64,000 bases of DNA from Candidatus Binataceae bacterium. Lineage in GTDB: Bacteria > Desulfobacterota > Binatia > Binatales > Binataceae. Numbering within the stretch: position 1 is the first letter of the stretch; each line of letters opens with the position of its first letter. The stretch lies in the NCBI GenBank assembly GCA_050736615.1, contig JBOHWL010000123.1:27384-91383 (forward strand), in the 5' to 3' direction. Below the pieces are notes generated by a model. That model was given only the letters and a program-made list of their open reading frames with translations. It was not told the origin of the DNA and did no database searches. Position numbers and translations under genes: made by a program. Of the stretch, positions 3,813 through 36,633 are shown one piece after another.

Positions 3813-5282
3813 ATGTCGGTCGATCTGAATCGTGTGATCGAGCAGGTGTCGAAGGAAAAAGGGATCGACAAGACGATCGTCGTCAATGCGGTCGAGGAGA
3901 TGATGCATTCCGCGGCGCGCCGTACGTTTGGGCCGGACCGCAATATCGAGTCGCGCTACAACCCGGATATCGGCGAAGTCGAACTGTTCGAAATCAAGAC
4001 CGTGGTCGAGCAGGTTGCCAATCCAGCTTCGGAAGTGGAGCTTGAAGAAGCGCACAGCCGGTATGATCCGGAGGCTCAGGCGGGTGACGAAATCCTGATT
4101 AAGCTCGATACCGCCACGATGGGCCGGATTGCGGCGCAAGCCGCCAAGCAGAATCTCATCCAGCACATCCGGGACGCTGAACGCAAACAGATTTACAACG
4201 AGTTCAAGGACCGCAAGAGCGAGGTCGTCTCGGGCATCGTGCAGCGCTTCGAGCGCAAGAACATGATCGTGAACCTGGGCCGCACCGAGGCGATTTTGCC
4301 GGAGAAGGAACAGATTCCGCACGAGCGCTATCGGCAAGGTGACCGTATTCGGGCGCTGATCGTGGACGTTGATTTATCTGAAAAAGGACTTTCGATTGTG
4401 CTTTCACGCACCTCGAACGCCTTTCTCTGCAAATTGTTCGAACAGGAAGTGCCGGAAATCTACGAAGGCATCGTCGAGATTCGCCAATGCGCGCGTGAAC
4501 CCGGCGGGCGCGCTAAAGTCGCGGTTTACTCCAAGGACAACGATGTCGATCCCGTCGGCGCGTGCGTCGGCATGAAGGGTACCCGCGTGCAGTCGGTGGT
4601 CCAGGAATTGCGCGGTGAAAAGATCGATATCGTGCCGTGGACCGATGATCAGGCCGAGTTGGTATGCCGAGCACTGGCACCCGCCAAGGTTTCCAAGGTG
4701 ATCATCGACGAAGACGAGCATGCGATGGAAGTGATTGTCCCCGATGATCAGCTTTCGCTCGCAATCGGCAAGCGCGGCCAGAACGTCCGCCTTGCTCATC
4801 GGCTGTCCGGATGGAAGCTCGACGTGCGCAGCGATTCGGAGGCTGAAGAGGAAGCGCGCGCGGCGCGCGCGTCGCTCAACGCGATTCCCGGCATCGGAGA
4901 CATCAATGCCGAATTGCTCTACCAATGGGGGTTCCGGTCCTCTGAACAGTTGGCTGAAGCCAACGAGAATAATTTTGAGGTGGAAGGGATCAGCCCTGAG
5001 CGCGCCTATCAGGTGATCAACGCGGCGCGCGAATGGGTGGCAAGCAAAAGACGTCTGGAAGAGGAGCGCGCCGCCGCCGCCGCGGCGGCCGCGGAAGCGG
5101 ATGCCGGTGTTGAAGAAAATGGCGCGGCGGAGTCCGCCTCCGATTCCAAGGATGCGGATGGGAATGACTATCGCGCCGCCGCGGGTGACACTGCCGGCAC
5201 AACCGAAAACGTTGAAAGCCGTCCCGATGAGGCCGCGCCGAGCCCGGCGACGGATACTGAAGACGCCGATGTCAAGCCATAG
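3813..5282 (+). CDS. nusA: Transcription termination/antitermination factor NusA
   Basis: NusA N-terminal domain (VIEQVSKEKGIDKTIVVNAVEEMM), S1 and KH domains (GMKGTRVQSVVQELRGEKIDIV), acidic C-terminal tail. Canonical rimP-nusA-infB context. Confidence 0.95.
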   Translation: MSVDLNRVIEQVSKEKGIDKTIVVNAVEEMMHSAARRTFGPDRNIESRYNPDIGEVELFEIKTVVEQVANPASEVELEEAHSRYDPEAQAGDEILIKLDTATMGRIAAQAAKQNLIQHIRDAERKQIYNEFKDRKSEVVSGIVQRFERKNMIVNLGRTEAILPEKEQIPHERYRQGDRIRALIVDVDLSEKGLSIVLSRTSNAFLCKLFEQEVPEIYEGIVEIRQCAREPGGRAKVAVYSKDNDVDPVGACVGMKGTRVQSVVQELRGEKIDIVPWTDDQAELVCRALAPAKVSKVIIDEDEHAMEVIVPDDQLSLAIGKRGQNVRLAHRLSGWKLDVRSDSEAEEEARAARASLNAIPGIGDINAELLYQWGFRSSEQLAEANENNFEVEGISPERAYQVINAAREWVASKRRLEEERAAAAAAAAEADAGVEENGAAESASDSKDADGNDYRAAAGDTAGTTENVESRPDEAAPSPATDTEDADVKP

Positions 5283-5566: not shown

Positions 5567-8563
5567 ATGGCTCGAAAGCGAATTAAGACCCTTGCCACCG
5601 ATTTGGGCGTGTCCGTTGAGGACGTGCTCGCAAGCAGCAGACGGCTGCGTTTGGCCCACGCGCATTCCGAATCCAGTGTGCTCTCGTCCGAGGATACCGA
5701 ACGGATCAAAGCCGACCTCGACGAACAGGCTCATCGCGCGGCTCTGATGCGGCGTGAAACCGTGGTTGAGACTAGCGCCGGCAAAGTGGTTGAGAAGCGG
5801 CTCAACGCCACCGTGATGCGGCGACGGCATACCGAGCCGGAACCGTCGCAAGCGGCGCCGGTCGAGGCTGAACTCTTCCATTTCGAAGTTGAACAAAGCC
5901 GTGACGAGGAACCGTTCGTCGCGCCAGTCTTCGAAGTACCTACGCCCGCGGAGTCCGACCTTGCGGAATTGCCAGCATTGGAAATGATTGAACCCGTTCA
6001 TGCGGAAACCGCCCAGTCGGCGACTGACGTTGAGACCGAAATTGTGACGCCGGCGGCGGCCGAGCTGACGGAGCCGCAAACCCCGACGGACTTGCCGCCC
6101 GAAGAGAATGTCAACGGCATCGCAACCAAACTTACGACAGCCGAGCGTCAGCCGGAGTTGGATAAAGGTTCCGGAGCCGCGGCCCGGACCCTGCCCGCCG
6201 AGGTCAAAGCCACCCCTGCTCAGTCGGCCGTTGAACGTGAATCACACGGCCGGCCGGTGCCCGCGCGCAGTTCTCCCACGACGCCGCCCAGCGCGGCGTC
6301 GGGCCCGCGTGGCGCTGGCACGCCGGTGCCGCGCACAAGTGAGTCGTTGACGCCCGGCCGTACGATTAACCTGACCGGTGCCGCGCATGCTTCGGCGCCG
6401 AGTCTCGACGACGGGCCGCGTGGTCCCAAAGTGCTCGGCAAGATTGATTTGCGCAAACCAGCGCCGCGTCCGGCACCGCCGACCACGGCACGTCCGGGCA
6501 CCGCGTTGGGACGCCCGGCGGGACGTCCATCGCCTGCGGGAGGGATGCCGGAACCATTCGCTCCGCCACCTTCACCCGACCAGGTGAAGCCGGGTGCGCG
6601 TGCAATCAAAAAGAAGAAGGTCGTCAAGAAGGGGACGACGGATGTCGCGGCCGAACGCGAGATGCGCGGGATGCGCGTCCCGAAGAAGCGTCGCGCCCTG
6701 CCCGGCAAGGAACAGAGAAAGACCGAAATTACGACGCCGAAGGCCTCAAAGCGCGTCGTGCGTATCACTGAGGGTGTGACCGTCGGCGATCTCGCGCGCA
6801 ATATGGGTGTCAAGGCAGCCGAGATTATCAAGAAATTGATGGGCCTGGGCGTGATGTCGACGCTCAATCAGGTGCTCGACGTTGACACCGCGACATTGGT
6901 CGCCAGTGACTTCGGTTACAGTGTTGAAAACGTCGCTTTCGATGCCGAATCCGCCATCGCTGAAGAAGGCGAGGAGGTGGCGGAGGGCGAAGCGGTGACG
7001 CGCCCACCGGTGGTCACGGTCATGGGCCATGTGGACCACGGCAAGACTTCACTCCTCGACGCGATCCGTCATACCAGCGTGACCGAGCGGGAATTTGGCG
7101 GGATCACGCAGCATATCGGCGCGTACACGGTTGAGGCCAACGGACGCAAGCTCAGCTTCGTTGATACGCCCGGCCATGAAGCGTTTACGGCGATGCGCGC
7201 GCGTGGCGCAAAGGTCACCGATATCGTGATCCTGGTGGTGGCGGCCGACGAAGGCGTGATGCCGCAGACGGTTGAGGCGATTAATCATGCGCGCGCCGCC
7301 GGCGTGCCGATTATCGTCGCGATCAACAAAATCGATCGACCCGAGGCCAACGTCGATCGGGTTAAGCAGCAGCTCACGGAACATGCACTGATTCCCGAGG
7401 ACTACGGCGGCGATACTATCGTGGCGCCAGTCTCGGCACGCACTCGCGAGGGTATCGACCATCTGCTCGAAATGATTCTGCTGCAAGCCGACCTGATGGA
7501 CCTGAAGGCCAATCCGGCTCGTTCGGCGCGCGGCACCGTGGTGGAATCACAACTCGACCGCGGCCGCGGTCCGGTGGCGACCGTGCTGATCCAGGAGGGC
7601 ACGCTGCATCAGGGCGAGCCATTCGTCTGCGGCATGACCTATGGGCGCGTGCGCGCGATGCTTAATCATCTGGGGCAGCGGGTGACCGAGGCGGGCCCTT
7701 CCACGCCGGTCGAAATTTTCGGATTATCGAGTGTGCCTGAACCGGGCACCGCGTTTATCGGCGTCGCCGACGAGGCCAAGGCGCGCCAGGTCGCTGAATT
7801 CCGTCATTCCAAACAGCGCGAAGGCGTGTTGCAAAAGACCAGCCGCGTCTCGCTTGAGTCTTTGAGCGAGCGGATGCTGGCGGGAGAGGTCAAAGAGCTG
7901 CGCGTCATTATCAAGGGCGACGTCAACGGTTCAGTCGAGGCGGTGGCCGACTCGCTGCAGCGCTTGTCAACCGAAGAAGTCAAGCTTGACCTGATTCATA
8001 AATCGGTCGGCGCGATTTCCGAAACCGACGTGAGCCTGGCCTCCGCCTCCAAAGCGATCATCATTGGGTTCAACATCCGCCCCGAGCCCAAAGCGGCGCA
8101 ACTTGCCGAAAAGGAAGGGGTTGAAATCCGCCTCTACACCATAATCTACGAAGCGATCAACGACATGCGCGAGGCCATGGAAGGATTGCTGGCGCCCACC
8201 TACCGCGAGAGATCTTTGGGCCGCGCCGAGGTTCGTCAGACCTTCGTCGTCCAGGGCAATACCGTGGCCGGTGCGATGGTGCTCGAGGGTAAATTACTGC
8301 GCGGCGCGCGCAGTCGCCTGGTGCGCGATGGGCGGGTGGTATGGGAAGGCAGGATCGGTTCGCTCCGGCGGTTTAAAGATGATGCTCGCGAAGTTCAGAG
8401 CGGTTATGAATGCGGCGTCGGGCTGGAGAATTTCAACGATGTCAAACCCGGTGACGTGGTCGAAAATTTCGAAATGGAGACGGTTCTGCGCAAACTCTCC
8501 GCGCCCCGGCAGGAGTCAATCCGCGGCCAAAGTGCGGTGATGGAGAAGCAGCTCCACACCTGA
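5567..8563 (+). CDS. infB: Translation initiation factor IF-2
   Basis: Long low-complexity N-terminal region, then a GTPase domain ([30 protein letters not shown]) and the IF-2 C-terminal domains. Confidence 0.95.
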
Positions 8564-14645: not shown

Positions 14646-16247
14646 ATGATGGGAAATCGCAGCCGCTATTCCGATCAGGGCGGGATCAGGGTTGCCGCCG
14701 GATGGACACTGAGCCGACTGACCCCGCCGAGCACCTTGTTCGGCGCCAACGGCATGCGCTTCGGACCTGACGGCCGCCTGTATGTCGCGCAGGCTTTCGG
14801 CAGTCAGGTTAGCGCGGTGGATATCGGCAGCGGGGCGGTCAGCACGGTCAGTCCAATCGGCGGCGAGATAGTCGCCCCGGATGACCTCGCCTTCGACTCT
14901 CGCGGCGTACTGTACGCGACCGAGGTGATGAGTGCGCGGGTATGCGCCCGCTCGCCCAACGGCGCGTTGCGCATCATCGCCGACCAAGTGCCCGGCGCCA
15001 ACGGCATCACCGCGTATCAGGAGCGCCTGTTCATGGATGAATGCCGTCCCGACGGCCGCCTCTTCGAACTGTTTATAGACGGCCGCGCACCGCGCCTGTT
15101 GGCGGAAAATCTGCCCTTGCCCAACGCGTTGGCAGTTGGCCCCGACGGCAATATCTACTTTCCCGCGATCGGCGCCAACGAAATCTGGCGCGTGCCATTG
15201 TCCGGCGGCCGCCCCGAGCGCTTTACGAATCAAGTCGCGATCCCGACGGCGGTGAAATTCAACAGCAAGGGCGAGCTACTTTCCACCCAAGGCCGCAGCG
15301 GAGAAATTCTGCGCTTCGATTTGCAAAGCGGCAATTGTACCGTGGCCGCGACGATGCGTGCGGGTATCGATAATTTCGTCCTGACCGGCGATGACCGTAT
15401 GTTCGTCTCACATTTCGTTGACGGCGGCGTCGCCGAAATCATGGCGGATGGACGCGAGCGGGTGCTGGTCGCGCAAGGCTTTCTTGGTCCACTGGATATC
15501 GAAATAGCTGGCGATGGGCGGCTCTACGCGGCTGACGGTATCAGTATGGCGGTGGTGGAGCGCGACGGCGCCTCACGCCGGGTCGGTATGCTGTTCGACG
15601 GCCACTTCCCTGGCTTCGTGCGCGGACTGGCGGCTGCGAGTTATGGCGCGCTGGTCACCACTACTTCCGCCGGTGCGGTTGTCACCTACCATCCGGTCAC
15701 TCATGAAATGACGGAGCATGCCGCCGATTTGCAGGAGCTGTATGGCGTTGCAGTGGCGCCCAGCGGCGCGATCGTGGTGGCCGAGGGAGGCGCTGGACGC
15801 GTGCTGCAAATCGACCGCGCCGAGGTCAGTGTGCTCGCGCGCGGCCTTGACCGCCCCACTGGTATCGCCAGCGGCGGCGATGGTTCATGTTATGTCTGCG
15901 AAGCTGGCGCGGGGCGTGTCGTCGAGGTTAACGACGGCGTTAACCCCGTACTGGGGGGGTTGCGTGAGCCGCAAGGATTATTGCGCGTAGGCGATGAACT
16001 GTTCGTGATCGACGCGGGTGCGCACGAGCTCATCGTATTTTCTTTGCGCAGCAGGCAGCGCGAAATCGTCGCTTCCAATTTGCCCGTGGGCGCGCCTCCT
16101 GGCGTGACGCCCAAAACCCTGATGGGTATTGCGGGACTGCTGCCCGGCCCGCTGCGTCCGTTCGCCGGCCTTACGCGCGCGCCTGACGGTACCATCTACG
16201 TTGCCGCTGACGGCGACGGCAGCGTATTGTCTGTGCGCCGCGCTTAA
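14646..16247 (+). CDS. SMP-30/gluconolactonase/LRE-like beta-propeller protein (two propeller halves)
   Basis: Repeated P(D)G/LYV(A)/GANGI blade-like segments (RFGPDGRLYVAQ, FDSRGVLYATE, GPDGNIYFPA, APDGTIYVAADGDG). Confidence 0.55.
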   Translation: MMGNRSRYSDQGGIRVAAGWTLSRLTPPSTLFGANGMRFGPDGRLYVAQAFGSQVSAVDIGSGAVSTVSPIGGEIVAPDDLAFDSRGVLYATEVMSARVCARSPNGALRIIADQVPGANGITAYQERLFMDECRPDGRLFELFIDGRAPRLLAENLPLPNALAVGPDGNIYFPAIGANEIWRVPLSGGRPERFTNQVAIPTAVKFNSKGELLSTQGRSGEILRFDLQSGNCTVAATMRAGIDNFVLTGDDRMFVSHFVDGGVAEIMADGRERVLVAQGFLGPLDIEIAGDGRLYAADGISMAVVERDGASRRVGMLFDGHFPGFVRGLAAASYGALVTTTSAGAVVTYHPVTHEMTEHAADLQELYGVAVAPSGAIVVAEGGAGRVLQIDRAEVSVLARGLDRPTGIASGGDGSCYVCEAGAGRVVEVNDGVNPVLGGLREPQGLLRVGDELFVIDAGAHELIVFSLRSRQREIVASNLPVGAPPGVTPKTLMGIAGLLPGPLRPFAGLTRAPDGTIYVAADGDGSVLSVRRA

Positions 16248-16307
16248 CGAGTGACAATAACTGGCCGCGTCCTTGGCGAGGTTCATACGAGTCGACAAAT
16301 TGCAAAA

Positions 16308-16841
16308 CTATCGCGGATTCGAGGCTTCAATAGAATAATCGAAAAAGGCCCGTTTCACCCCTGCTTGGCGCTCAAGTGCCATATTCAGAATCACCATAGC
16401 TTCAGCAATAAGACGATCATCCCGGTCTGGATTGCCGACCGGTAAAGGGCCACTGGGGAATTTCCCGCCATGAAATAGATTGTTCCGAAGCCGGCCAACC
16501 GCGAGAAACAAGTCGCTTACTGTCTCTATAGCGTTCTCCTTTTTCCAAGCAAGGCGATTCTCCTTCGATACTTGGGTCTTTGGCGGCGTGTGTAGAAAAG
16601 TATCCATTTTTCCCGAGTTCCGCATTTCGTTTAGAAATGCCGGCCCAAGACATCTAGCGAACGCCTTCCAATCAGGACTCGCCAGATACAAGTTCTTGGC
16701 GTTTTGTTGGGGCGCACTCCACCGCGCGGATTTGAGAAAACCGCCGCGTTTCAGAGCGTACTCGAAACGAGAGAAAAACACGAAGAACTCAATTCCCTTA
16801 GCTGGTAAATAATTGATCAAATCATCTATTGACGTTCCCAT
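16308..16841 (-). CDS. Hypothetical protein with HEPN-like R-x4-H-G motif (RNNLFHGG) in a low-GC islet; candidate solo HEPN RNase/abortive-infection-type protein
   Basis: 177-aa ORF in a clearly AT-richer segment (about 16260-17040). GRLRNNLFHGGKF fits the HEPN R-x4-6-H motif (RiboL-PSP/DUF4145-like R-N-x-x-x-H-G). No partner ORF is adjacent. Confidence 0.4.
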   Translation of the reverse strand: MGTSIDDLINYLPAKGIEFFVFFSRFEYALKRGGFLKSARWSAPQQNAKNLYLASPDWKAFARCLGPAFLNEMRNSGKMDTFLHTPPKTQVSKENRLAWKKENAIETVSDLFLAVGRLRNNLFHGGKFPSGPLPVGNPDRDDRLIAEAMVILNMALERQAGVKRAFFDYSIEASNPR

Positions 16842-17098
16842 ATCTGATCCGATCTTTTAAGATTTCTGGCAGCTAATTTCAATCGTTGCGAGTAGCTGGG
16901 CGTGCCCGCAGCATGTTAAGCTTCCAAAAACGCGATTAAATCTCGAAACCTTTGATCCTGTCTCCTCGGACCGCCACCCCAGGACCGATGTCCCAGCCTA
17001 CCTAAGACGTGAGTTCATCGACCGTAGGTACCCTCAAAAGGTGGGTGGTGAGCCAACCTTCCGCATGGATTCGCGCTTGGTGCGTCCGCTAGCGACCA

Positions 17099-17386
17099 CT
17101 AATGACGGTCGTGGTCAGCGTGATGCTCGTCTCCTCCTTCATGGTGGCGTTCGGCGTGTTCATGGTCATCGCGGTCTCGTCGTGGGGCTCGCGTTTCATG
17201 ATCGTGATCATAATGGCCGTAATAGACTGGTGGTCCGGGCGCGTAGGCATAAAACGGATATTCATAGCCTGACGCCGGATAACCATACCCTGGTCCAGCG
17301 TAGCGGTCTTCGAAACAGCCTTGCAGCGCCGCCGTTGTGAGCACGATCATCAAAGCCACCAGGACCGCAAGGATTTTAGACTTCAT
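17099..17386 (-). CDS. Small lipoprotein with Gly/Tyr/Pro-rich middle and His/Asp/Glu-rich C-terminal tail (putative metal-binding)
   Basis: MKSKILAVLVALMIVLTTAALQGC is a signal peptide plus lipobox. The C-terminus is HYDHDHETRAPRRDRDDHEHAERHHEGGDEHHADHDRH. Start at the internal ATG 17386. Confidence 0.5.
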   Translation of the reverse strand: MKSKILAVLVALMIVLTTAALQGCFEDRYAGPGYGYPASGYEYPFYAYAPGPPVYYGHYDHDHETRAPRRDRDDHEHAERHHEGGDEHHADHDRH

Positions 17387-17675
17387 AGGATATGCACCTC
17401 GCACAGAAGAGGAGCATCGCCCGTACCGTCCAGGAAAACGTGGCAAAACCAAATCGGAGATGCTGACGCGGTGAAAAACGTCAATCGCGAGATTGCTCCG
17501 ACTTCGGAGATGGTGCGCCGATTTGACATTTTGCGCGCCCGCCTGAATGTCTGTTAATCTGAAGGACGCCAATTAACCGCTCGGCGCGACCCTTCCATGA
17601 TAAACTTTACACGCGCTGAAGCCTCTGGTAGCCTTGCCGTTTGAATCAAAAAACAAGGGAAAATACGTAGACCTG

Positions 17676-33649: not shown

Positions 33650-33833
33650 GGCACATCTTCTCCGCCAGATTAGCTCTCATTACTTTACGGAGCCGCGCCC
33701 GCGGTCGAAAGCGTTGCGAGCTTCATGGCGATGACTGCATGGATGTTGACTCGCAACCGTATATATGTTGATTCAGAATGGATTGAGCACTGAAATCCCG
33801 CGGCCACGACATTACAACCGAGCGGAGGTTTTT

Positions 33834-34643
33834 ATGTTGAAGCACCTTCAAGAAATCCCGGAGTTCGGCAAACGGATAGACTTTGGCCGGACCGCCTCCG
33901 ACTATGGACGATTTCGCGCAGGCTATCCGGACGAGCTTTATCGCCGGCTCGAAATTTTCGGCGCCGGTGTGCGCGGCCAGCGAATGCTCGATGTGGCGTG
34001 CGGCACCGGCTTTTTGGGACGCGGGTTCGTGCGTCAAGGATGCGCGGTGACGGGCGCGGATATTTCATTCGAGCTGATGCGGCAAGCCGCGCAACTCGAC
34101 GCCGAGGCCGGGGTCGAGATGCGCTATCTGCGAGCGAAGGCGGAAGCGCTGCCATTTTCCGATCGCGTTTTTGACGTCGTCACAGTGGGGCAAGCCTGGC
34201 ATTGGTTTGGCCGGTCTCGCGCAGCGGCCGAGGCGCGCCGCGTGTTGCGCGCGGGCGGATTGTTGGTAATCGCGCATTTCGACTGGATTCCGATCCCCGG
34301 GAACGTGGTCGAAGCGACCGAGCGTCTGATTGAGAAACATAATCCGCAATGGAAGCTTGGTGGCGGACTCGGGATTCATCCGCAATGGCCGCGCGATGCC
34401 GCGATTGCCGGTTTCGGCGAAATCGAGACGTTTTCCTTCGACGTGGCGGTGCGGTATTCCCATGAGGCGTGGCGCGGGCGGATTCGCGCCAGCGCTGGCG
34501 TCGCGGCGGCGCTCAGCGCGGAACGGGTGGCGAACTTTGATTGCGAACTTGCCGCGCTTTTGCGCGAGCGGTTTCCACAGGAGCCGATGGGCGTGCCGCA
34601 TCGCACCTTCGCGACGGTCGCCCGCTCCCCGCGTAATTTCTGA
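33834..34643 (+). CDS. Class I SAM-dependent methyltransferase
   Basis: MLDVACGTGFLGRGF is SAM motif I. RBS GGAGGT lies upstream of the ATG at 33834. Confidence 0.75.
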   Translation: MLKHLQEIPEFGKRIDFGRTASDYGRFRAGYPDELYRRLEIFGAGVRGQRMLDVACGTGFLGRGFVRQGCAVTGADISFELMRQAAQLDAEAGVEMRYLRAKAEALPFSDRVFDVVTVGQAWHWFGRSRAAAEARRVLRAGGLLVIAHFDWIPIPGNVVEATERLIEKHNPQWKLGGGLGIHPQWPRDAAIAGFGEIETFSFDVAVRYSHEAWRGRIRASAGVAAALSAERVANFDCELAALLRERFPQEPMGVPHRTFATVARSPRNF

Positions 34644-34754
34644 CGATCAGGCGAGAGAAGATGAATTATTCCAGCGCGGCCAAGGCCACGCTACGGAAGT
34701 CTGCCAATCCCAGGCTGACGAATGGAGGTCAGCATCGGCCTTTTGTTATCGAGG

Positions 34755-35189
34755 TCAGCTCTTTCCGAAGACTTGGGACCGTTTGAATTGGCGAGCCTTC
34801 TCCCAAGCGAGACTCAGTTCCTTCTTCAGAAAATCAACTCGGTCGGGGACCGGGACAGACATCACTTTAGATAGCTGAACCGGGCGCCGGCACATCAGAT
34901 CTGGAGGAATTACGCGAGTTTCAGAGTCGCACGTAGCCGTATAAGCGAACGAAATAAAAAAAATCATCGGCTCTTCATCTTTCTGCCTCTGGAAAACCGC
35001 AATTTGCACCTGCTGAAAAAAGCCTTGTTCAGGTTCCTCCCGAGCGAACCACACGGGCTCGTTATGGTATCTAACCACGTATTGCCGCTCTTCAGATTCG
35101 CCCCCAAACTCGGCGACCGCCCCATCAAGGAAGGGGCTCAGAGACGGCGACTCAATCGGTCCATCGTATCCCAGCATCGTTGCGCTCAT
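34755..35189 (-). CDS. Hypothetical protein, downstream partner of the ART-like ORF (candidate antitoxin/immunity)
   Basis: Start ATG 35189 overlaps the upstream ORF's stop in an ATGA arrangement (translational coupling). Low-GC islet. No recognisable family. Confidence 0.4.
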   Translation of the reverse strand: MSATMLGYDGPIESPSLSPFLDGAVAEFGGESEERQYVVRYHNEPVWFAREEPEQGFFQQVQIAVFQRQKDEEPMIFFISFAYTATCDSETRVIPPDLMCRRPVQLSKVMSVPVPDRVDFLKKELSLAWEKARQFKRSQVFGKS

Positions 35190-35530
35190 GGTTCTCGGAT
35201 AGAAAGCCACTTGGATTCATTCGGCAAGATCGTGACTGCGTTAGTGGTATAGGACTCGGGTGCCCCTCCTCTCCTTATGACATTTCCATAAGGCCCGACA
35301 ACCGGGCTCGCCCGAAATGGTACAGACAGCCCGGCTGGAGGAGGATTGTCAGGAATCTCAAATGCGATTTCGACTGGTTTACTTATGATCCCAAGCGCGT
35401 TCGCGGCAGCGGCACCAGTTGCATAGAGTTCGCTGCTAAGGTAAACGCGGCCGGAAGTTCCGGGATTTATAATGCCCGTGCAGATAATACCTTGTGCAGC
35501 TTGGCGAGATGTATAGTGATAAAGAGGCAT
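35186..35530 (-). CDS. Small protein resembling the C-terminal ADP-ribosyltransferase-fold lobe of Tpt1/KptA (H-x-T ... R-x-Y-L-S-S), candidate toxin
   Basis: PLYHYTSRQAAQGIICTGIINPGTSGRVYLSSELYATGAAAANALGIISKPVEI compared with KptA (recalled from memory) [48 protein letters not shown]. Low-GC islet. An AT-rich upstream region is followed by an ORF of only 114-124 aa. Confidence 0.4.
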   Translation of the reverse strand: MPLYHYTSRQAAQGIICTGIINPGTSGRVYLSSELYATGAAAANALGIISKPVEIAFEIPDNPPPAGLSVPFRASPVVGPYGNVIRRGGAPESYTTNAVTILPNESKWLSIREP

Positions 35531-35695
35531 GGAGTCTTGTACTGCAACGGATTTACGCATTGCAACTCGTTTTATTGTAGCCGATTCTATCTAGTAAGAA
35601 TAAGGCGGAAATCAATTTTCGGCCTTGAGCGTCACCTGATTGCTAAGCAGAGTGTAAATTTCCGGCGCTTTGTCTCCCGAAAACCCTCGTGTCGC

Positions 35696-35838
35696 GCCAG
35701 CGCGGGCGTCGCGGCGGCTCTCAGTGCGGAGCGGGTGGCGAAATTCTATCGCGAACTCGCCGCGTTTTTGCGGGAGCGGTTTACGAACCGCTGGACGTGC
35801 CACATCGCACGTTTGCGACCGTCGCTCGCTCATCACGC
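35696..35838 (+). pseudogene. Diverged relic copy of the 3' end of the upstream SAM methyltransferase gene (about 85% identity to 34492-34634)
   Basis: Direct DNA alignment by eye. Encodes ...AGVAAALSAERVAKFYRELAAFLRERF... and ...PHRTFATVARS... in shifted frames. No intact N-terminal part. Confidence 0.6.
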
Positions 35839-35985
35839 TGGGTGTTCGACCGGACGTTGCCTCCCGCCTTGCCGGGGTCGGGAAATAGGTAATCGTACGA
35901 GCCCGTGGCATTTGGGAATTTCTGGGTCGATATCTATACTCTCAGATACAGAATCAACATTAATTGGAAGAAAGCGGATAATCCT

Positions 35986-36240
35986 TTGGCTCTAAACATC
36001 AAGCATCCCGAAGCGGACCGGCTCGCACGTTCGCTAGCTGAAAAGACGGGAGAAACCATAACCGAAACCGTGATTAAGGCACTGCGGGAGCGGCTTGCAC
36101 GCGAAGAGGGAAGGACAATTTTGCCAAACGTTAAGGACGATCTACTCGCGATTGGCATGCGCTGCGCCGCTTTACCAGACATCGAAACTCGCTCCGCTGA
36201 CGAGATTGTCGGTTATGATGCTCACGGGTTGCCCGGCTGA
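35986..36240 (+). CDS. vapB: Type II TA system antitoxin, VapB/FitA-like (ribbon-helix-helix)
   Basis: (M)[41 protein letters not shown] is a classic VapB-family N-terminus. TTG start assumed at 35986. Stop overlaps the vapC start. Confidence 0.7.
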
Positions 36241-36243
36241 CAG

Positions 36244-36633
36244 ATGGTTATAGACATCTCCGCTCTGTTGGCGATTCTGTTTGGTGAGCCTGAGAGAGAA
36301 GCCTTCGCCGGTGCTATTGCAGCCGATTCAAAGAGGCTCATCTCGGCGGTCTCAGCGCGTGAGACCGCCATCGTTGTGGAGGCGCGTAAAGGGTCAGCGG
36401 GGAGCCGCGAATTGGATCTGCTGCTTCACAGGGCGCGGGTCAGTATCGTAGCGTTTGCAGAGGGGCAGATGGAAATCGCACGCGACGCCTGGAGGCGGTT
36501 TGGCAAGGGCAATCATCCGGCGAGCCTTAATTTCGGTGATTGTTTTTCATATGCACTATCCAGGAGTTCGGGCGAACCGCTGCTCTTCAAGGGCGAGGAT
36601 TTTTCCAAAACCGATGTATCAAGCGTGCTCTAG
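36244..36633 (+). CDS. vapC: Type II TA system toxin VapC (PIN domain)
   Basis: MVIDISALLAILFGEPE..., ...SAVSARETAIVV..., ...NFGDCFSYALS are PIN-domain acidic residues. 4-bp spacing from vapB. Confidence 0.8.
   Translation: MVIDISALLAILFGEPEREAFAGAIAADSKRLISAVSARETAIVVEARKGSAGSRELDLLLHRARVSIVAFAEGQMEIARDAWRRFGKGNHPASLNFGDCFSYALSRSSGEPLLFKGEDFSKTDVSSVL

Follow-up and report, generated by a model that had tools for sequence, protein, structure and literature searches.

The 64,000-nucleotide stretch of a Candidatus Binataceae genome analysed here (hereafter the window, to which all unlabelled coordinates refer) carries a low-GC islet whose sole contents are two small minus-strand genes, A and B, and these are read as a toxin/immunity pair of the toxin–antitoxin (TA) type, in which A would bind NAD+ and harm the cell when B is missing, and B would occlude the NAD+ cleft of A; the probability of this reading is put at about 0.65. 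Gene A (35186–35530, minus strand) encodes a predicted stand-alone toxin domain of the ADP-ribosyltransferase (ART) fold with 114 amino acids (aa) and a putative NAD-site triad of H5, Y30 and E92, and gene B (34755–35189, minus strand) encodes a protein of 144 aa, counted from its ATG, which belongs to no known family and is predicted to be the cognate immunity or antitoxin protein. As a first-pass annotation of this DNA had noted, the stop codon of A and the start codon of B overlap as ATGA at 35186–35189 of the minus strand (TCAT on the plus strand), an arrangement consistent with translational coupling of the two genes. An upstream ATG at 35560 would extend A to 124 aa (35186–35560); the homologues, all 111–118 aa long, begin without exception at MPxYHYTS, and the ATG at 35530 is therefore the likely start. 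The ratio of nonsynonymous to synonymous substitution rates (dN/dS) against relatives was 0.04–0.13 for A and 0.18–0.21 for B, with synonymous sites near saturation, and these low values indicate that both are real protein-coding genes under purifying selection; with a dN about three times as high, B evolves faster than A.

The AlphaFold2 model of A built on an 81-sequence alignment reached a predicted local distance difference test score (pLDDT) of 95.6 and a predicted template modelling score (pTM) of 0.88, and was used instead of a model from a 5-sequence alignment, which was unusable (pLDDT 38). The fold of the ART superfamily is present in the model, with a split beta-sheet core and the NAD+ cleft between the sheets. 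Its closest structural match is the C-terminal domain of Tne2 (PDB 6B12), with heat-labile enterotoxin, scabin, Tse6, pertussis toxin, PARPs, diphtheria toxin, Arr and MbcT following at lower Z-scores; Foldseek returned the same kinds of proteins, and the viral fold search in BFVD gave weak matches only (E ≥ 0.016), one of them to a phage DarT. H5 lies in predicted strand 1 (residues 3–7), Y30 in strand 2 (29–32) and E92 in strand 5 (91–95), the strands that bear the H-Y-E triad in the diphtheria-toxin/PARP/Tpt1 class, whose triad positions are reviewed in PMC13285283; the placement of the three residues in the cleft is putative, being read from secondary structure and not from coordinates. 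The description that suits A best is that of a sister family on the H-Y-E branch of the ART superfamily, one that has no curated model. It had been proposed to be a Tpt1/KptA-like mini-protein without the RNA-binding lobe; the ART fold and the missing lobe were borne out by the model, and membership of, or closest kinship with, Tpt1 was not, as A has no match to PF01885.

A word-indexed search with A retrieved four close homologues only, and an exhaustive HMMER search of 1.84 billion cluster representatives with a 5-sequence profile (A1) retrieved 160 proteins at E ≤ 1e-3, 81 of which reach E ≤ 1e-10. About 100 of the 160 are stand-alone proteins of 105–130 aa. Conservation was scanned in 105 family members, comprising 81 stand-alone proteins and 24 from an alignment of C-terminal domains, and it includes the putative triad: H5 is kept in 100 of them, an aromatic residue at position 30 in 103, and position 92 holds Glu in 90 and Gln in 12 (E or Q in 102/105), with G88 present in every member (105/105). 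The top conserved positions are H5, Y6, T7, aromatic 30, S/T32, Y36, A42, L46, G88 and E/Q92, and R9 is kept in the stand-alone branch only (69/105). No model of Pfam, NCBIfam, PADLOC or PHROGs scored above threshold for A or B. The sole Pfam family matched repeatedly was Tox-ART-HYD1, in 11 of the 81 stand-alone and 5 of the 24 C-terminal-domain members (16/105), always below threshold, with best E-values of 5.6e-4 and 1.1e-3, respectively; the other sub-threshold Pfam matches were to TNT (5/24) and to Tpt1 (3/81, best E 0.021). Among the matches of the A1 profile, P0132 (E 2.7e-5 across the entire library) contains four stretches of PARP catalytic domain (PF00644, E 4.7e-36). A similarity to RibB (3,4-dihydroxy-2-butanone-4-phosphate synthase; E 0.022 with the 5-sequence profile) was rejected as a chance match, as it was gone with deeper profiles and misfits the predicted fold. 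A search of viral contigs found no relatives of A, and tblastn of A against plasmids returned nothing.

The toxin reading is strengthened by the architectures of the longer relatives, because the A-type domain ends RHS-type proteins. In about 30 of the 160 A1 matches the domain stands at the C-terminus of a longer protein, such as P0133 (1,782 aa), P0138 (1,937 aa) and P0151, which contain RHS repeats; P0138 and P0116, which have an RHS-associated core just upstream of the A-type domain; P0140, which has a PASTA domain; and several other long proteins with a linker of the "DPxG" type that is typical of RHS ends. Ten Leptospira plasmids likewise encode annotated "RHS repeat-associated core domain-containing" proteins that end in an A-type domain. 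In polymorphic toxins the C-terminal domain is the toxic part and the immunity gene follows immediately downstream (PMC3482391, PMC10539506). At the one RHS locus examined (L034 1541–3074; Leptospira interrogans plasmid pLiSL15, NZ_CP092170.1), Arg replaces the conserved His (GYRYVT), an immunity gene of the Imm53 family lies upstream, and the 90-aa open reading frame (ORF) downstream of the toxin has no Pfam hit and looks unrelated to B on inspection. The window itself contains no RHS gene in its 64 kb, and when six long proteins, RHS-type or related, were used as tblastn queries, A alone was matched; since the A gene also supplies its own start codon at the edge of the domain, A would be a free cytoplasmic protein here, and the placement of the domain at the end of a large protein is a property of its distant relatives only.

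In 20 of 21 loci, gene B lies immediately downstream of A in the same orientation, as counted with local hidden Markov models of both families among the distinct fetched loci that hold a complete A and its downstream DNA; a search for related loci used a 15-sequence subset of the 81-sequence alignment of A. The loci have their sources in Binataceae, Dehalococcoidia, Rokubacteria and metagenomes of soil or sediment, and the versions of B that follow A are diverged (17–59% identity). The junction is a 4-nt overlap in L032 as well, with gaps of 0–9 nt elsewhere. B had no match in Pfam, PADLOC, NCBIfam, PHROGs or a sequence profile search of the PDB, in agreement with the earlier statement that its family is not recognisable; eight members of the B family had no Pfam match at E ≤ 5, and no helix-turn-helix (HTH), ribbon-helix-helix (RHH) or AbrB domain, macrodomain or ADP-ribosylhydrolase signature was found in B with Pfam. 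Because of the tight linkage, the co-translation, the faster evolution and the lack of an enzymatic signature, B is expected to be an immunity protein or antitoxin of the binder type, and its binding to A is predicted.

Several loci display altered states of the pair. A and B form a single frame of 268–273 aa at two metagenomic loci, in P0159 (L016 6001–6822) and P0029 (L025 48–866); the A part of P0159 ends in GGGARD and has lost the conserved Glu of the GGGxE motif, which suggests from sequence that the toxin is frameshifted and inactive and that the immunity protein fused to it was retained. Short pieces or broken copies of A lie at 3992–4093 of L012, 282–356 of L033 and 345–861 of L021, where B is broken too, and the module appears to decay often. 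At 194–1023 of L022 an ORF of the B family is located upstream of an A gene cut off by the end of the contig, which may represent a tandem array of modules. In a Dehalococcoidia lineage the pair occupies a conserved chromosomal position beside folD (L031 265–4055, L016 3923–7714 and L010 2172–3896; in L010 only the folD side was read, by eye), and in L016 and L031 the NAD(P)HX repair gene nnr (YjeF_N + Carb_kinase) lies on the other side of the pair, separated from it by acpS in L016. The presence of nnr beside a putative NAD-consuming toxin may be a coincidence or a functional link.

The islet (34644–35691, unstranded, 1,048 bp) has a GC content of 0.517 against a window mean of 0.602 (standard deviation 0.036 among windows of equal size), and just 0.08% of such windows are as low. 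GC at third codon positions (GC3) is 0.45 in A and 0.57 in B, compared with 0.69–0.75 in neighbouring genes. It lies behind a gene for a class I S-adenosylmethionine (SAM)-dependent methyltransferase (33765–34643, plus strand; Pfam Methyltransf_11, E 8.7e-21), which belongs to the context and not to the module, and whose intact 3' end (34484–34643, plus strand) is the left copy of a direct repeat. The right copy is a diverged relic of the same gene end (35692–35838, plus strand), an insertion scar with 88% identity over 91 nt (34484–34574 against 35692–35782); with gaps, the alignment covers about 145 nt (34484–34627 against 35692–35830) at about 87% identity. It contains one 4-nt gap, which marks the relic as frameshifted by a 4-nt deletion, and the peptide matches of the relic to the methyltransferase fall in two frames. 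Similarity at the DNA level between the window and the related locus L001 extends over 34741–35530 only, that is, the two genes, so the two-gene unit is a conserved entity. Three features, namely the low GC, homology that is confined to the two genes, and the duplicate of about 87% identity at the flank, indicate that foreign DNA was inserted into the 3' end of the methyltransferase gene and that the gene end was restored by the second copy, a pattern familiar from integrative elements. No recombinase gene is present in the islet; tyrosine recombinase genes adjoin the module in L002 and L029.

Assembly support was obtained for the left side of this structure. An independent Logan assembly from another sequencing run (L018, SRR27067710) is 99.9% identical to 34322–35673 and covers the methyltransferase end, B and A; as it spans the methyltransferase/B/A junction, an assembly chimera of the window contig at the left junction was ruled out. 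For the right junction with the relic (35673–35981) the window's own contig is the sole source: two independent assemblies of near-identical genomes break on either side of the relic, L018 ending at 35673 and L017, a second contig from a metagenome-assembled genome, beginning at 35981. Such breaks are as expected at a repeat in short-read assemblies, or may reflect population heterogeneity. The first-pass annotation had thus described the region well: the AT-rich islet between the methyltransferase stop and a relic, which it had begun at 35696, a few bases from the start of the repeat alignment, and an acquisition by horizontal transfer agree with the data. The outcomes it had named as speaking against its claim, namely no ART or Tpt1 fold, no conservation as a pair, and an assembly chimera, were each tested and none was found, the last with the limit that just one of the two junctions was reproduced.

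Under the preferred toxin/immunity reading, A and B would form a self-contained, co-translated cassette, which horizontal transfer would have brought into the 3' end of the methyltransferase gene. A would be a minimal ART-fold enzyme without a secretion or targeting domain that holds NAD+ by means of H5, Y30 and E92, and free A would poison the cell, most likely by hydrolysis of NAD(P)+ in the manner of Tne2, or alternatively by transfer of ADP-ribose onto a cellular target. B, made from the same transcript, would bind A and block its active site, as the immunity proteins of NADase and ART toxins do. Hydrolysis is favoured over ADP-ribosyl transfer at roughly 55:35 within this model, for reasons that are not decisive: the structure closest to A is that of an NADase of matching size (119 residues in the Tne2 C-terminal domain, 114 in A), the A domain lacks an extra region for target recognition, Gln occupies position 92 in a tenth of the natural members, and B is no ADP-ribosylhydrolase.

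A number of observations weigh against this reading. The score of A against PF15633 (Tox-ART-HYD1) is 12.2 bits, with a cutoff of 25, and no curated model reaches its threshold; profile searches of PDB sequences with four alignments of A gave no significant match to Tne2 or to any ART; and the ART assignment rests on a predicted structure and on sequence matches that are weak but convergent. The near-invariant Glu92 would suit a transferase as well as a hydrolase, and the choice of NADase is in this respect weakly founded. In L001, a 13-kb contig, A is intact but B is split by a single frameshift (6912–7375), a state that an active toxin A would make lethal, provided that the frameshift is no assembly artefact. 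The stable position of the Dehalococcoidia pair between housekeeping genes fits a non-toxic cellular role as well, and B lacks a DNA-binding domain, unlike classical type II antitoxins.

The strongest rival keeps the same two-gene toxin/immunity layout but makes A a true ADP-ribosyltransferase acting on a macromolecule (protein, DNA or RNA); it is modelled on DarT, TreTu, Tre23 and ParT, in which a macromolecule is modified and NAD+ is not simply depleted. The near-invariant Glu92 would suit it, and it is held as a less likely but real possibility. It is rather unlikely that the pair serves anti-phage defence by abortive infection, in which a phage would release A from B and the consumption of NAD+ would stop the infected cell. 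NAD+ depletion is an established output of defence systems, the islet is foreign DNA, the pair of the window adjoins vapBC, and the pair in L001 stands beside DUF5677, GmrSD_N, an N6/N4 DNA methylase and unknown genes in what looks like a defence island. On the other hand, neither A nor B matched PADLOC-DB 2.0 at E ≤ 1, no relatives turned up in viral contigs, no sensor-like domain is detectable in B, and most of the longer loci have housekeeping neighbours (nnr/acpS/folD, thiolase, deacetylase). The earlier suggestion of a toxin/defence module was accordingly upheld in its toxin/immunity part through the RHS-type fusions, and its defence part stays hypothetical, with a single locus resembling a defence island. 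The defence role is compatible with the TA reading, to which it adds a further putative function. A broader version appears improbable, namely that the stand-alone pairs constitute an unrecognised, widespread abortive-infection or stress-response system of Binatota, Chloroflexota and Methylomirabilota, phyla of soil and the subsurface that have received little study, with the smallest self-sufficient ART-fold catalyst, a new substrate specificity (e.g., ADP-ribosylation of nucleic acids or small molecules in place of simple NAD+ hydrolysis) and, in B, a trigger-sensing inhibitor of new fold.

Slightly less credible still is a role against neighbouring bacteria and not inside the producer, for which the cassette would be either a spare or orphaned unit of a polymorphic toxin system or a small effector that is secreted and encoded along with its immunity protein. 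The A-type domain does end proteins with RHS repeats and RHS cores, and stand-alone toxin cassettes that recombine into polymorphic toxin genes have been described (PMC3482391). But the ATG of A lies exactly at the domain boundary with no RHS-core remnant upstream, the tblastn searches with long proteins recovered nothing in the window but A, the many stand-alone relatives are of the same length, the ORF downstream of the Leptospira RHS toxin looks unlike B, and no obvious signal peptide or trafficking domain was seen in A or B when the sequences were read by eye, with no predictor run. That A is a truncated Tpt1/KptA-type or other non-toxic NAD-dependent housekeeping enzyme with B as its accessory subunit, although the Dehalococcoidia loci would suit it, is very improbable, since A lacks the entire N-terminal RNA-binding lobe, which in Tpt1 carries most of the catalytic Arg-His-Arg-Arg tetrad, and has no PF01885 match, the RHS fusions point to a toxin, and decayed copies or fragments are frequent (L012, L021, L033, P0159), as expected of a selfish module.

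Beyond the relic lies the type II TA pair vapBC (35986–36633, plus strand), with vapB at 35986–36240 (PSK_trans_fac, E 1.4e-22) and vapC at 36244–36633 (PIN, E 4.5e-18), assigned by Pfam and by the gene calls of L017, so that the earlier report of an adjacent vapBC is correct. The GC3 of vapBC (0.55–0.61) is also under that of the surrounding metabolic genes, and TA-type cassettes may have a small hotspot in the region from the methyltransferase to the LLM oxidoreductase. In a consensus promoter scan no sigma-70-like promoter was found upstream of A, and two plus-strand matches were found upstream of vapB. The window belongs to a metagenome-assembled genome, and several of its proteins are identical to NCBI entries MGH7986442–448. 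The only other stretch with a GC content like that of the islet (0.51–0.53) is 16000–17000, where a 177-aa ORF of unknown function (16308–16841, minus strand) lies beside a His/Asp-rich ORF of 157 aa (17099–17572), and this stretch may be another acquired segment.

As a family pair beyond all curated libraries, with the putative toxin represented by about 160 clusters at 50% identity, A–B connects small chromosomal two-gene cassettes of phyla that have been little studied with the toxic C-terminal ends of RHS toxins in other bacteria. With about 110 residues, A is among the smallest ART-fold domains and could serve as a minimal model for NAD+ hydrolysis versus ADP-ribosyl transfer, and B is a candidate for a new inhibitor fold and a new immunity family. 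The duplicated gene end at the flank offers a clean example of a cassette insertion that spares the host gene. Current views are not overturned by the pair, which extends a well-documented toxin/immunity theme.

Compared with known systems, the relation of A to Tpt1/KptA (PF01885) exists at the level of the fold only, since A lacks the two-lobe architecture and has no match at E ≤ 1, and is instead paired with an immunity-like gene, with A-type domains fused to RHS toxins. No sequence link was detected between the pair and the TA systems with ART-type or NAD-targeting toxins (DarT-DarG, ParT-ParS, MbcT-MbcA and RES-Xre). DarT is about twice as large as A; B differs from DarG in lacking a macrodomain and from Xre in lacking an HTH, and it is not similar to MbcA or ParS. 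With type II TA systems the pair shares two small, adjacent, co-directional genes that are kept together, and neutralisation of toxicity by the partner is predicted, whereas an autoregulating DNA-binding antitoxin is lacking. Tox-ART-HYD1 (PF15633) was predicted to be an ART toxin domain in polymorphic toxin systems (Zhang et al. 2012, PMC3482391), with an ART fold of the H-Y-[DE] clade, a C-terminal position in RHS proteins and dedicated immunity genes, and its signature consists of conserved H, [RK], [FY] and [DE] (PMC3482391). A has H5, the aromatic residue at 30 and E92 as candidate counterparts of these positions, the HYD1 columns having been compared at model positions 1–20; the match of A (12.2 bits, E 0.3) covers residues 3–22 only and lies under the gathering threshold of 25 bits. 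The described immunity partner of HYD1, Imm-My6CBD, has no match in B or in eight members of the B family, and the stand-alone A branch in Chloroflexota, Methylomirabilota and Binatota falls outside the phyletic range listed for HYD1. The nearest relative in structure is Tne2-Tni2, an NAD(P)+ glycohydrolase effector of the type VI secretion system of Pseudomonas protegens with its immunity protein (PDB 6B12). The 6B12 chains are absent from the PDB profile searches with the four A profiles and with the B profile at E ≤ 10, and B matches neither Tni2 nor any other PDB chain. In contrast to A, which would be a free-standing cytoplasmic protein with putative NADase activity, Tne2 forms the C-terminal domain of a secreted PAAR effector; the likeness lies in the structure, in which the A model (114 residues) resembles the Tne2 C-terminal domain (119 residues).

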